Assembly: GCA_947494115.1 (NCBI GenBank)
Contig: CANLTT010000002.1
Location: 1 to 58,786 of the forward strand
DNA: 58,786 nucleotides
DNA from: Candidatus Caenarcanales bacterium
GTDB taxonomy: Bacteria; Cyanobacteriota; Vampirovibrionia; Caenarcaniphilales; Caenarcanaceae
Direction: 5' to 3'
Part shown: positions 27,406 through 40,514 of the stretch, one piece after another
Numbering within the stretch: position 1 is the first letter of the stretch
How the letters are laid out: every line of letters begins with the position of its first letter
Position numbers and translations under genes: made by a program
The notes under the pieces: generated by a model
Seen by the model: the letters and a program-made list of their open reading frames with translations, nothing else
The model's database searches: none
What the model was told of the DNA's origin: nothing

Positions 27406-27462
27406 AAATTTTTAAATTATAGTAATGAACTTCGATTATACCTATAAACAAGGTCAAACAAT

Positions 27463-27675
27463 CAACACTATGGACAGTTTTTAAAATAACAAAATAAACA
27501 GGCTTTTCATGAGCAATAATGGACTGAATCGCAACAAGCTGTCAATCCGTCGTTTGGGGGCGGCACCCCGAGAGCGGGGTTTTAGGGGGCGGCGGCAAGC
27601 CCCCTAAGAACAAGCCACTTCAAATATAATCAATTTGTAAAATTAGAACATTTTTTAAAATTGTCCATAGTGTTG
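27463..27675. mobile_element. Second repeat family: 213-bp element with ~24-nt terminal inverted repeats and a GC-rich double-hairpin core
   Basis: The left end is CAACACTATGGACAGTTTTTAAAA. The right end is TTTTAAAATTGTCCATAGTGTTG. Core hairpins lie at 27565-27580 (ACCCCG/CGGGGT) and 27583-27606 (TAGGGGGC/GCCCCCTA). The right 69 bp recur at 37347-37415. Confidence 0.8.
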
Positions 27676-37091: not shown

Positions 37092-37358
37092 TCAAGCATC
37101 TTCTTTAAAAAAATTGAAACCAACTATTGAACCAACAGATTTATTACTATGCATTCTCATTTCACTAAGTGCCTCTAAAATTGAAGCTTGATCGACCGAT
37201 AAATTCAAAGAAGAAAAATTATTCTTTTCAAAAGAGAATTGAATTGTTCTCTTCACAAGTTCTTTAAGAAATGCCTGTGAGACAGATCCTGTTTTTTGTG
37301 CAATAAACTCTAGATCACAGTCTTGGAGGGTATAATCAGCGAAACTAGAACAGGCCAC
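37092..37358 (-). pseudogene. Remnant of an AAA+ ATPase gene (C-terminal lid domain only)
   Basis: 'DCDLEFIAQKTGSVSQAFLKELVKRTIQF....LSVDQASILEALSEM' resembles the AAA+ lid ('dvdl..lA..T.G.SgA.l..l...A'). Its GTG 'start' and first codons lie inside the truncated repeat at 37347-37415. No Walker motifs are present. Confidence 0.4.
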
Positions 37359-37415
37359 TTCAAATATAATAAATTTGTAAAATTAGAACATTTTTTAAAA
37401 TTGTCCATAGTGTTG
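37347..37415. repeat. Truncated copy (right-hand 69 bp) of the 27463-27675 element
   Basis: AGAACAGGCCACTTCAAATATAATAAATTTGTAAAATTAGAACATTTTTTAAAATTGTCCATAGTGTTG matches 27607-27675 with 2 mismatches. Confidence 0.85.
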
Positions 37416-37416
37416 A

Positions 37417-37545
37417 CTAACTGAGAAACATAAAGACTTTTTATTAAGCATTAAAACTGATCTGAAAAATATTGAAGACTTAAGAAACTGTACAGCTCAC
37501 AATAGAACACCTTCTAATCGAGAAGAAGAGCGCAAAACTAGCTAA
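37417..37545 (+). pseudogene. Possible remnant of a HEPN/Abi-type gene (C-terminal 42 codons with an Rx4H motif)
   Basis: The open frame reads LTEKHKDFLLSIKTDLKNIEDLRNCTAHNRTPSNREEERKTS*. 'LRN..AH' is the HEPN catalytic motif seen in Abi_2/AbiD-like proteins. It has no start codon and begins right after the truncated repeat. Confidence 0.3.
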
Positions 37546-37873
37546 ATAAACTAACCAAGTGCTTCAGGCTAGATTGAACAGTTTCTTTATCCAATGATTG
37601 TAGAGTACCCAGTTTAAGCTTTGCAAGGGTTTTTTCAATAGTAATTATCTTGTGAATTCTCACATAAGAAGGCAATGATAAACCTGCTTTTTCCCATTCA
37701 GTCAGCTCAATATCATAATCCGATTTAACTTTCTTACTGGTAATTCTGGCTATTAATAAATCGCTGTCTTGAGTATCCAATAAAACCAAAGAAGGCCTCA
37801 GTTTAGATTGAACTTGGTTTGTATAGGGAAAATCAACTAGGACAATATCAGCAAAATTAAATTCTTTGTTCAT
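37538..37873 (-). CDS. Type II toxin, PemK/MazF family (mRNA interferase fold)
   Basis: 'ADIVLVDFPYTNQVQSKLRPSLVLL......LIARITSK' matches the MazF/PemK signature. 111 aa. Its start overlaps the upstream small gene by 4 nt (ATGA). Confidence 0.85.
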   Translation of the reverse strand: MNKEFNFADIVLVDFPYTNQVQSKLRPSLVLLDTQDSDLLIARITSKKVKSDYDIELTEWEKAGLSLPSYVRIHKIITIEKTLAKLKLGTLQSLDKETVQSSLKHLVSLFS

Positions 37874-38088
37874 GCAATGAGCTTTCTGTACTTCTCATCA
37901 TAAATTGAGTCAGCTTGATCATCATCTTTGAGAAAGTTTTCAATGCCAGCTTTTTTGAAAACCTCTTCATCTGAATCAAGAGATTCAATCGTTATTTGAA
38001 CTTCCTTGCCCTGAAATACATCAAATAAAGCCAAAAGATCATTCACATTACCTTGTTCAATTTTTTTAATGGCCTTAACTTGTTTCAT
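37870..38088 (-). CDS. Putative cognate antitoxin (72 aa, acidic C-terminus, family not recognised)
   Basis: Position and 4-nt overlap with the toxin gene, small size, and an acidic tail 'DDDQADSIYDE'. I could not see an AbrB/SpoVT, RHH or Phd motif. Confidence 0.6.
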   Translation of the reverse strand: MKQVKAIKKIEQGNVNDLLALFDVFQGKEVQITIESLDSDEEVFKKAGIENFLKDDDQADSIYDEKYRKLIA

Positions 38089-38245: not shown

Positions 38246-38788
38246 TTATATCTTGTATTTTGATTGTATTCTTGCAAGCTCGTCTTTTGTATTTTGTGCA
38301 GCATTATAACGAACTTCGGCACTGATAAAAACTTTTCTCAAGCGAGTTTCTAGTGCGGAAAATTCTGAAATCCGTTGAAGAGTTTTTGTTTCATTGCGAA
38401 TAGCCCAACATCTAACATTCATTTGCCTAAAATTTGAGTCACAACAACCCGTTAAAAAGCCTAAAATCAGTAAGCTGTGGGCAAATTTTTTTACAAATTC
38501 AGCTACTGATCTTCCTTTATCAGTATGTTCTGTCCATTCGATTAAGTAAATGGTTTTGCTACTTTCATCATAATAAAAAGCGTCAGCCGACTTAGCAAGA
38601 TCATTTTCGCCAAATGCAAGAAAACCACAAAGAATCTCTTTTTTTGCACAATCAAAATTATAAGCATTTATAGAAATTTCTTCATTAATTTTCAGGTTTT
38701 GAGGAGATTGGAATCTTCGGAGTATTTCAGCTAATTGAGAAATGTAAGTTTCCGTATTCTGCATTGCTTTTTCAATCATCAACTTCAT
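38246..38788 (-). CDS. 180-aa protein of unknown function, translationally coupled to the upstream ATPase (candidate effector/partner)
   Basis: The start overlaps the ATPase stop by 17 nt. I found no HNH, Toprim, HEPN or Walker motifs. The only weak cue is 'AFYYDESS...IYLIEWTEHTDKG', a possible degenerate PD-(D/E)xK-like arrangement. Confidence 0.6.
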   Translation of the reverse strand: MKLMIEKAMQNTETYISQLAEILRRFQSPQNLKINEEISINAYNFDCAKKEILCGFLAFGENDLAKSADAFYYDESSKTIYLIEWTEHTDKGRSVAEFVKKFAHSLLILGFLTGCCDSNFRQMNVRCWAIRNETKTLQRISEFSALETRLRKVFISAEVRYNAAQNTKDELARIQSKYKI

Positions 38789-40187
38789 TGTTTATTTTAT
38801 CCATAGCCGCTGACATTTTTTCAAAAATAGGAAATGGATCTTCGTCGGTTAAGTTTTTCAAAATACTCCCGTCATCTCCATCTTTTTCTAGATAGTAAAG
38901 TCTAAAATCTTCTTTAATGATATTTGAGCGGTTTGCATAAGTATAAAGAGCCTCAAGCATATAAGGGCTATGTGAATTTATGAAAATTGGTATACCTATT
39001 TCGGCTAATTTGACTAAAAGCTTAGCTAGCTCTATTTGCCATTCAGGATGTAAATGAACTTCTGGTTCATCAAATAAAAGCAAAGAGTTTGGCACAATTA
39101 AACCTTCAACTCCCAGCAGTAATTGTAAAATACCAAAAGCTTTTATGCCTTCTGCCGTATTTGAAACTGGTAATGAAACTTTTTTCCCTTTCTTCTCAAA
39201 TCTAAAAACAAAGTCTCTCTCTTTATCATCATATTCAAGGTAACCACCTGTCAACTCCTTAATTTTCTCCATCAAGAAATTAGAAACTCGCCCTTCAAGA
39301 GGATAAAAAGAATCTGAACTTAAAATCAATTTGCTAAATAAATCTGCAATAATTGCACCGAGAGATTTACTAATTTCATATTCTTGTCTATAAGAATTTC
39401 CAAAAGAGGTCAATCCTAAATATCTTCGACTTGTTGTTAAAGAAATGAATTTAAAGAATTGCAAAATCACTGGAGAAAACAAATAAGTTATCTCCTTTAG
39501 AGGGAGAGTTGAAGCATTTACAAAATCTGCAACCTTATTATTTTGAACTTGTACACTAATTAATTCGTTATTATTTTCATCTGAAACCTTAACGGTGGCG
39601 GCTGATTGAGAAAATAAATTATTAAAGTTTTTCTTGAAAGTTGTATTAAGAAAGTTATCAAAACATTTCTTGTGGGCAATATTCGCTTCTGGCTTTTCCA
39701 AATCCCTTTCAAAAGTTTCTATCTCTTCCAGTAATTCAGTGAATTTGGATTTATATTCATCTTCTAGCTTTGGTTCTATAGTAAGAGAATAGCAAAGCTC
39801 TTTTAAGCTATTTAACTTTGTAGAAATAATATCGTCATTTTGCCTGTCAATTATTGAGAGTTTGTCTTTAAAATCACGCAGAAAATCATAATCTTTAGAA
39901 GCTTCTTTGATTAATAATTTTTCCTGATCCTTGTCAAGAATTAACCTCTTTGGTCTTGTAATAGATCTAATAATTAAATCTGTTTTACGAAATAAAAACT
40001 CTAACTGTTCTTCTTGAGAGCTTTCTAGAAATTGCTCGGAGTCTTTAACAGTCTTAATAAGCGAAAAGATTGTTTTAGAAATAAAGGTTTTACCTGTCTT
40101 ATTTAAACCAGCTATGACTGTAAGCCCACCAATATCAAACTCAGCAGATTTAATCGGCCCTGTATCGTTTAACTTAATTTTTATCAT
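38772..40187 (-). CDS. ABC/SMC-type AAA ATPase (AAA_15/AAA_21-like, OLD/RecF-like ATPase head without a fused nuclease)
   Basis: Walker A 'AGLNKTGKT' near the N-terminus, then a ~270-aa helical/insert region. Signature-like 'SNTAEGIKAF', Walker B 'LLLFDEPEVHLHP' and H-loop 'INSHSPYML'. A GGAGAG Shine-Dalgarno lies just upstream of the ATG. Confidence 0.8.
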   Translation of the reverse strand: MIKIKLNDTGPIKSAEFDIGGLTVIAGLNKTGKTFISKTIFSLIKTVKDSEQFLESSQEEQLEFLFRKTDLIIRSITRPKRLILDKDQEKLLIKEASKDYDFLRDFKDKLSIIDRQNDDIISTKLNSLKELCYSLTIEPKLEDEYKSKFTELLEEIETFERDLEKPEANIAHKKCFDNFLNTTFKKNFNNLFSQSAATVKVSDENNNELISVQVQNNKVADFVNASTLPLKEITYLFSPVILQFFKFISLTTSRRYLGLTSFGNSYRQEYEISKSLGAIIADLFSKLILSSDSFYPLEGRVSNFLMEKIKELTGGYLEYDDKERDFVFRFEKKGKKVSLPVSNTAEGIKAFGILQLLLGVEGLIVPNSLLLFDEPEVHLHPEWQIELAKLLVKLAEIGIPIFINSHSPYMLEALYTYANRSNIIKEDFRLYYLEKDGDDGSILKNLTDEDPFPIFEKMSAAMDKINNEVDD

Positions 40188-40288: not shown

Positions 40289-40361
40289 TGGAGCTAAGGG
40301 GATTCGAACCCCTGACCTCTTCAATGCCATTGAAGCGCGCTACCAACTGCGCTATAGCCCC
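40289..40361 (-). tRNA. tRNA-Ala (anticodon GGC)
   Basis: The reverse complement folds as a cloverleaf: GGGGCTA/TA/GCGC-AGTTGGTA-GCGC/G/CTTCA-ATGGCAT-TGAAG/AGGTC/AGGGG-TTCGAAT-CCCCT/TAGCTCC/A. The G3:U70 Ala identity pair is present. No encoded CCA. Confidence 0.92.

Positions 40362-40440: not shown

Positions 40441-40514
<74 letters not shown>

Follow-up and report, generated by a model that had tools for sequence, protein, structure and literature searches.

A predicted ABC-type ATPase and NERD-like nuclease gene pair in a Candidatus Caenarcanales genome shares the architecture of the HEC-02 and PD-T4-4 defence systems

The stretch of DNA analysed here (the window) comprises 58,786 nucleotides of Candidatus Caenarcanales bacterium, from contig CANLTT010000002.1 of assembly GCA_947494115.1. 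Between positions 38246 and 40187 it carries two co-directional open reading frames (ORFs) on the minus strand, encoding an ATP-binding cassette (ABC)-type ATPase of 471 aa (38772..40187) and, immediately downstream, a partner protein of 180 aa (38246..38788). The pair had been singled out in an initial annotation of the window as a candidate defence system, and ORF calling matched exactly the coordinates and 17-nt overlap that were reported for it. The stop of the ATPase gene lies over the start of the partner gene at 38772..38788 (−). The start of the partner is ambiguous, with the longest form beginning at M1, which gives the 17-nt overlap, and the public gene call P0001 beginning at M4 (coordinate 38779), which gives a protein of 177 aa and an 8-nt overlap, ATGATTGA. 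Whichever start is used, the overlap indicates that the genes are tightly, that is, translationally coupled. Overlaps of 4 or 8 nt or gaps of less than 10 nt were the usual junction among the 73 related loci described below. A scan for promoters and terminators yielded sites no commoner than in shuffled sequence. The ratio of nonsynonymous to synonymous substitution rates (dN/dS) was below 1 for both the ATPase and the partner gene, with dS saturated.

Motif conservation in the ATPase was read from an alignment of 81 homologues. All of the motifs quoted in the initial annotation were present and fell on invariant or near-invariant columns, in the order Walker A, signature-like motif, Walker B with D-loop and H-loop, with an insert separating the two halves of the domain. 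The Walker A motif or P-loop, GLNKTGKT (residues 27-34; 40086..40109, −), has G27, N29, G32 and K33 invariant. In the signature-like motif SNTAEGIKAF (residues 342-351; 39135..39164, −), G347 is invariant, and N343, A345 and K349 are found in at least 90% of sequences. The Walker B motif and D-loop, LLLFDEPEVHLHP (residues 369-381; 39045..39083, −), contain the block D373-E374-P375-E376-x-H378-L379-H380-P381, in which all named positions are invariant, as are H406 and S407 of the H-loop NSHSPYML (residues 404-411; 38955..38978, −). The protein is therefore shown by alignment to possess the predicted ABC catalytic apparatus in intact form.

Library searches assigned the ATPase to Pfam families AAA_21 (6e-13, 49.9 bits against a cut-off of 27) and AAA_15 (8e-12, 45.9 bits against a cut-off of 32.1). 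Its best PADLOC match was HEC-02A (1.5e-30), followed by PD-T4-4_A (2.5e-27), PDC-M47A and NsnB and then by AriA, PtuA, Old and GajA. The strongest single library match, at 5.9e-46 and over the full length, was to phrog_14430, a phage-protein family of unknown function. The sequences of solved structures nearest to the ATPase were those of AriA and PtuA. One PADLOC model, PDLC04146, bears the label 'HEC-02B', yet the ATPases of the window and of several other loci matched it with E-values between 6e-16 and 9e-21. The 'B' notwithstanding, this model appears to describe an ATPase, a naming inconsistency in PADLOC.

An AlphaFold 2 model of the ATPase built from a deep alignment was of high confidence (predicted local distance difference test score, pLDDT, of 88.7; predicted template modelling score, pTM, of 0.88). 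It comprises an N-terminal beta-hairpin with the P-loop, a helical insert of approximately 150 residues (33-182), a small beta subdomain and the half that bears the signature, Walker B and H-loop motifs. Foldseek comparison of this model with the PDB returned PtuA (from Septu and from retron complexes), the retron-Eco8 ATPase, GajA and the heads of SMC, RecN and Rad50, all with a probability of 1.00 and E-values of 1e-7 to 2e-5, PtuA being the top match at 1e-7. The protein belongs among the ABC-type ATPases of the OLD/Septu/Gabija/PARIS defence clade, and its initial placement among such proteins is borne out by the PADLOC matches together with the Foldseek matches of a confident model. Searches of Pfam, PADLOC and NCBIfam revealed no HNH, Toprim (fused or DUF4435) or RloB-type domain in either protein, in keeping with the earlier observations that the ATPase carries no fused nuclease and that the partner is not of the HNH, Toprim, HEPN or RloB-like kinds.

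The partner itself yielded no match in Pfam, PADLOC, NCBIfam or PHROGs. A word-index homology search of 5.8 billion clusters returned only the query, a profile search recovered 4 clusters, and an exhaustive HMMER profile search found only 4 relatives among 1.84 billion representative proteins. Comparison of the partner-family profile with PDB sequences gave no meaningful match. Direct sequence searches thus could not tie the partner to known families, and only the genes lying next to homologues of the ATPase provided a link to one. The closest homologues of the ATPase (54-64% identity) derive from freshwater metagenomes and from Melainabacteria/Caenarcaniphilales metagenome-assembled genomes (MAGs), and all of them carry immediately downstream a homologous gene of 162-187 aa. 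The products of these genes share 24-53% identity with the window partner, which evidently changes faster than the ATPase among members of this clade.

A wider family emerged when GTDB species representatives were scanned with the ATPase alignment. At least 296 carry a relative, and the neighbourhood figures that follow cover the best 80 of these. At 73 of the 80 loci a co-directional ORF of 157-266 aa abuts or overlaps the ATPase stop; the remaining loci were mostly ended by contig edges. A single BLAST-connected family, referred to here as the main family, accounts for 64 of the 73 downstream proteins. Its invariant columns are a D, an E-x-K and a second K approximately 15 residues further on, accompanied by a near-invariant F-D and S, and its members are patchily spread over Bacteroidota, Campylobacterota, Proteobacteria, Bacillota, Spirochaetes, Melainabacteria and other phyla. 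The ATPase and its partner are conserved as a unit, and the window pair fits the layout of the family, with the ATPase immediately upstream, co-directional and coupled. The combination of this ATPase with a NERD-like partner of about 200 aa constitutes a widespread family outside the PADLOC 2.0 catalogue, which misses it because the partners have no model there. One member of the family resides on a Bacillus cereus plasmid of 152 kb (NZ_CP128105.1; L095:3434-5481), where the two genes are annotated merely as 'AAA family ATPase' and 'hypothetical protein'; its partner aligned to the main family with an hhalign probability of 99.1%.

The window partner was tied to the main family by profile comparison. 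With a hidden Markov model (HMM) of the main family, the window partner reached a score of 30.2 bits (E 1.8e-8 at Z = 1000), whereas the maximum reached by 2,000 shuffles of the same protein was 13.4 bits. Alignment of the partner clade against the main family with hhalign gave a probability of 96.7% (E 3e-10), and a second comparison gave 95.7% (E 9e-9). The resulting alignment sets KSAD69...IE84WT86...K101 of the window partner over kSxD...vEfK...K of the main family. In the merged alignment of 69 sequences D69, E84 and K101 (window numbering) are invariant, and the column occupied by T86 holds K in 64 of 64 members of the main family and T or S in all five members of the clade of the window. 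At the level of sequence profiles, this shows the window partner to be a homologue of the main downstream family. It represents a rare, divergent sub-clade within it. The predicted active-site core spans K66 to S105 (38474..38593, −) and reads K66-S67-x-D69 ... I83-E84-W85-T86 ... E97-F98-x2-K101-x3-S105. The initial annotation had remarked on a weak D...E-x-T arrangement in the partner, and this cue corresponds, by alignment with the main family, to the active-site motif.

The weak library matches of the main family indicate to which class of enzyme it belongs. PADLOC matches of its 64 members were concentrated on ten HEC-02B models (best 2e-5), followed by PDC-M47B, NsnC and Cas4, and those in Pfam were to L_protein_N (the bunyaviral endonuclease; 3 members), NERD and SduA_C. 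Since all of these are PD-(D/E)xK nucleases, the library matches point one way. Foldseek searches of the PDB and BFVD with an AlphaFold model of the window partner returned as top matches almost exclusively PD-(D/E)xK enzymes, namely Cas4/ACE1, HincII, YaeQ, RecB-type phage nucleases and, dominating the list, cap-snatching endonucleases. In the model D69 lies at the start of a strand, E84 in the next strand and K101 in the following helix, an order compatible with the alpha-beta-beta-beta-alpha-beta core of such enzymes within a model of pLDDT 58.7 whose matches have template modelling (TM) scores below 0.35. The sequence-profile comparisons by HMM and hhalign provide good support for the partner as a putative, divergent NERD-like PD-(D/E)xK nuclease homologue, which the predicted fold would corroborate. 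The statement that it has no recognisable effector domain accordingly stands for the standard libraries, where there was no match, and falls by the profile link to a NERD-like PD-(D/E)xK family.

Two characterised systems share this composition. HEC-02 (Hma-embedded candidate 02) consists of an ABC ATPase and a NERD nuclease, both of which are needed for defence (10.1101/2024.01.29.577857), and like the window pair it comprises two genes, one for an ABC ATPase without a fused nuclease and one for a small NERD-like PD-(D/E)xK protein. PD-T4-4, a validated defence system, pairs a P-loop/ABC ATPase with a PD-(D/E)xK nuclease (Vassallo et al. 2022, PMC9519451). A search of plasmids and phages with the ATPase by tblastn gave only partial, distant matches, one of which supplied a genuine PD-T4-4 on the E. 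coli plasmid pCUVM53-4. The order and sizes of its genes match those of the window pair: the ATPase, of about 470 aa, comes first, and a PD-(D/E)xK protein of some 200 aa comes second. PD-T4-4_B has in common with the partner families the local pattern K-S-x-D...(D/E)-x-K. Septu (PtuAB), Gabija (GajAB) and PARIS (AriAB) build on ABC ATPases from this structural clade and work by the same general logic, a nuclease being under the control of an ATPase that serves as scaffold or sensor. Their effectors differ, being an HNH protein (PtuB) in Septu, a fused Toprim domain plus the GajB helicase in Gabija and a DUF4435 Toprim protein (AriB) in PARIS, none of which is present in the window. The window pair has the architecture of HEC-02 and PD-T4-4, is a member of neither and belongs to a broad sister family. 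The original description of an uncharacterised system with a partner of unknown kind cannot be maintained, since the architecture of an ATPase with a small PD-(D/E)xK nuclease has already been validated in HEC-02 and PD-T4-4. The suggestion that the partner might prove homologous to an already described kind is correct in so far as it belongs to a NERD-like family, although it still lies outside the HEC-02B and PD-T4-4_B models.

On this evidence the pair is probably a self-contained nuclease-NTPase defence cassette of the HEC-02/PD-T4-4 type, belonging to a rare and divergent sub-clade, with its role in defence suggested by its relatives. Nuclease-NTPase systems including PD-T4-4 form complexes, their nuclease is inactive by itself, and their NTPase motifs are needed in vivo (10.1101/2025.07.10.664194); the complexes of PD-T4-4 are of higher order (Ragucci et al. 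2025 preprint). By analogy, the ATPase and the 180-aa protein would most likely form a complex, in which the ATPase may sense infection or serve as a regulator, licensing, loading or restraining the nuclease effector. When a phage infects or foreign DNA enters, nucleic acid would be cut by the complex without much regard to sequence, and cutting might either halt the invader directly or kill the cell, representing direct or abortive immunity respectively. If this is correct, a nuclease-NTPase defence cassette has as its effector a 'hypothetical protein' that all standard libraries miss, and a multi-phylum partner family escapes current defence-finder models, so that such systems are under-counted. 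The pair opens no new category of immunity.

Several results weigh against this assignment. HEC-02A, the best PADLOC match of the window ATPase, scored 104.6 bits and did so in two partial stretches; the model covers approximately 338 positions, and the window ATPase has about 130 extra residues in its insert. HEC-02B gave no match to the window partner at E <= 1, in contrast to the weak matches collected by the main family, and the lysine of its (D/E/Q)xK signature (10.1101/2024.01.29.577857) is missing from the window partner, whose clade has T or S there. The genuine PD-T4-4_A of pCUVM53-4 scored 768 bits on its own PADLOC model compared with 94 for the window ATPase, which marks the latter as a relative of PD-T4-4_A and not a member. 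The genuine PD-T4-4_B scored 313 bits on its own model, on which the window partner gave no match, and its alignment to the partner families with hhalign yielded a probability below 1%, from a single-sequence query of low power. The AlphaFold model of the partner is of low confidence, and each of its fold matches is individually weak (E >= 2e-3). The window partner also departs from the canonical D...(D/E)-x-K motif, reading E84-W-T86, and in mutational studies of related systems activity strictly required the canonical residues of the nuclease (Ragucci et al., 10.1101/2025.07.10.664194). To these are added the housekeeping flanks of many relatives, a marginal shift in GC content, the lack of att-like repeats and a possible assembly artefact, which are considered below.

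The departure at the active site raises the question of whether the partner is still an enzyme. It may instead be a pseudo-nuclease that binds nucleic acid as an adaptor or regulator of the ATPase, or the cassette may be what is left of a HEC-02-like system that has lost its function and is decaying. The uniform presence of lysine at the ExK position in the main family and its replacement throughout the clade of the window would fit such a loss, as would the need for canonical residues in related systems, the extreme rarity of the clade (the 4 representative clusters found among 1.84 billion proteins) and the faster evolution of the partner relative to the ATPase. Sites have also decayed elsewhere. 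The partner in a Persephonella MAG (L049:1370-2170) reads I-E-Y-F, with the lysine changed to Phe, and that in a Chitinophaga MAG (L015:5340-5888) reads S-x-T ... V-Q-T-F, with D, E and K all lost; as the former shows no special affinity to the clade of the window, the motif losses look independent. Against inactivity, D69, E84 and K101 are retained in all five clade members at 24-53% identity, which would be unexpected for a dead site and, together with intact ORFs and a dN/dS below 1, argues that the site is still in use. The motifs of the ATPase are likewise intact.

A precedent exists, moreover, for activity in the altered form. Reguera et al. described cap-snatching endonucleases as having two versions, PD...DxK...T and PD...ExT...K, both of them active. 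The catalytic lysine and a conserved threonine trade places between the versions, the lysine then being supplied by the next helix, a swap shown structurally by Lys94 of La Crosse virus (LACV) against Lys134 of influenza PA (PMC2940753). The ExT...K form is catalytically active in the endonucleases of hantavirus and influenza. The main family carries both lysines, that of the ExK and the second K. The window partner retains D69 and E84 together with the invariant K101, located 17 residues past E84, and its D69...E84-x-T86...K101 fits the alternative ExT...K version. We infer that the partner would still act as a metal-dependent nuclease, its ExT...K site using K101 of the helix as the catalytic lysine, and consider a pseudo-nuclease or relic somewhat improbable. 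If so, the replacement of Lys by Thr or Ser with retention of the helix lysine parallels the swap known from bunyavirus and influenza enzymes and provides a natural experiment that could reveal how such effectors withstand or make use of active-site rewiring.

The same resemblance permits a further reading, in which the clade of the window has switched to the ExT...K chemistry of viral cap-snatching RNA endonucleases and the effector, under control of the ABC ATPase, targets RNA and is not a DNA cutter. It could, for example, cleave tRNA or mRNA, as PARIS does with a different fold. The cap-snatching endonucleases of bunyaviruses and orthomyxoviruses (L_protein_N; PA-Nter) are indeed small PD-(D/E)xK domains with a conserved helix lysine, and the partner reads D...ExT...K. 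They are viral RNA endonucleases that form parts of polymerases, however, and the likeness is structural and at the level of motifs (E > 1e-3), implying no common function. A switch to RNA is in our view unlikely, and a nuclease-NTPase cassette of the HEC-02/PD-T4-4 type, without commitment to such a switch, remains the preferred reading.

The flanks of the relatives bear on whether the pair serves in defence at all. A survey of 127 immediate neighbours of the pair at the 73 loci found many housekeeping genes, including glyQ (5 loci), purE (4) and M24 peptidases (3). Defence genes were also recurrent, comprising type IIG restriction-modification (RM) enzymes/PglX (4 loci), DrmMI (4), AbiLi (3), mad2/mad3 (5), ResIII (3) and other AAA_21 ATPases (3), and integrases and transposases were among the flanking mobility genes. 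A conserved third gene was considered and rejected, the flanks at the 73 loci being heterogeneous. In Melainabacteria the same pair stands beside housekeeping genes at some loci and elsewhere beside a phage integrase and an MmeI-type RM enzyme.

Such flanks might suggest that the pair is not anti-phage but a repair or housekeeping ATPase-nuclease pair, or an addiction (toxin-antitoxin-like) module stabilising the islet beside MazF. Pairs of an ABC ATPase and a nuclease also serve in repair (SbcCD, Rad50-Mre11, RecN), SMC, RecN and Rad50 heads were among the fold matches of the ATPase, and a nuclease restrained by its partner resembles toxin-antitoxin (TA) logic (10.1101/2025.07.10.664194, discussion); in the window, the pair adjoins a MazF TA module. 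Set against this, the distribution of the pair is sporadic and patchy with no conserved synteny, its top matches in both sequence and structure are defence and not repair ATPases, the model of the ATPase lacks a long coiled coil or zinc hook like those of Rad50/SbcC, and defence and mobility genes recur as neighbours, as at the Melainabacteria locus with the integrase. A function outside anti-phage defence is accordingly judged quite unlikely.

The immediate surroundings of the pair in the window had been described as a defence islet beside a tRNA pair and a MazF TA module. Directly upstream of the ATPase, ARAGORN and Rfam confirmed tRNA-Ala(GGC) at 40289-40361 (−) and tRNA-Met at 40441-40514 (+). 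On the other side, across an intergenic gap of 157 nt from the partner stop, lies the TA module, of type II (37538..38088, −), in which the PemK/MazF toxin of 111 aa (37538-37873) was confirmed by a match to PemK_toxin at 1.4e-12. The gene of 72 aa upstream of the toxin (37870-38088) overlaps it by 4 nt and has no family match; it presumably encodes an antitoxin of a novel or divergent kind. The idea that the pair and MazF are functionally linked was rejected because MazF is absent beside the relatives of the pair, which makes it an independent neighbour module. Between MazF and pyk an ORF of 88 aa (37092-37358, −), which may be one of the two gene remnants reported in the initial annotation, had no match in Pfam or PHROGs; sister contigs have an ORF of 113 aa at this site owing to a repeat indel of 113 nt.

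The GC content of the pair is 31.7%, compared with 35.0 ± 2.5% for windows of the same size, which places it at the 7th percentile. The low-GC patch reported initially is thus marginal. A search for att-like direct repeats flanking the islet returned nothing beyond chance matches in AT-rich sequence, and there is consequently no sign of integrase-type insertion. The description as a defence islet is therefore supported in part: the tRNAs and the MazF gene are confirmed, the deviation in GC content is marginal, and the flanks of the relatives mix housekeeping genes with defence and mobility genes.

Related contigs offer some evidence that the islet varies. Three short metagenomic contigs identical to it, from the window's own population, end at its tRNA and MazF edges. 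A sister contig, L097, encodes an identical pyk protein and is 99.6% identical to the window across pyk-deoC (4.8 kb). At L097:1-2653, compared with the window from 37415 onwards and lying upstream of the repeat described next, an HflX-type GTPase gene and an FlhA-like gene, both absent from the entire window, stand in the place that MazF, the antitoxin, the partner and the ATPase occupy in the window. The breakpoint between L097 and the window coincides with a repeat resembling a miniature inverted-repeat transposable element (MITE) at 37342-37415, the MazF-side edge of the islet. A strain-variable islet would account for the difference, as could a chimera that arose in assembly through the repeat.

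The MITE-like repeat has inverted termini, CAACACTATGGACA ... TGTCCRTAGTGTTG, and is present in the window as a full copy at 27454-27675 and as the truncated copy at 37342-37415, with a core of 41 nt identical between the two. At the second of these sites the copy in the sister contigs L097 and L100 is more complete, by 113 nt. In L100 (1036-2537) pyk is split into ORFs of 175 and 301 aa, representing a frameshift, an assembly error or a pseudogenised allele.

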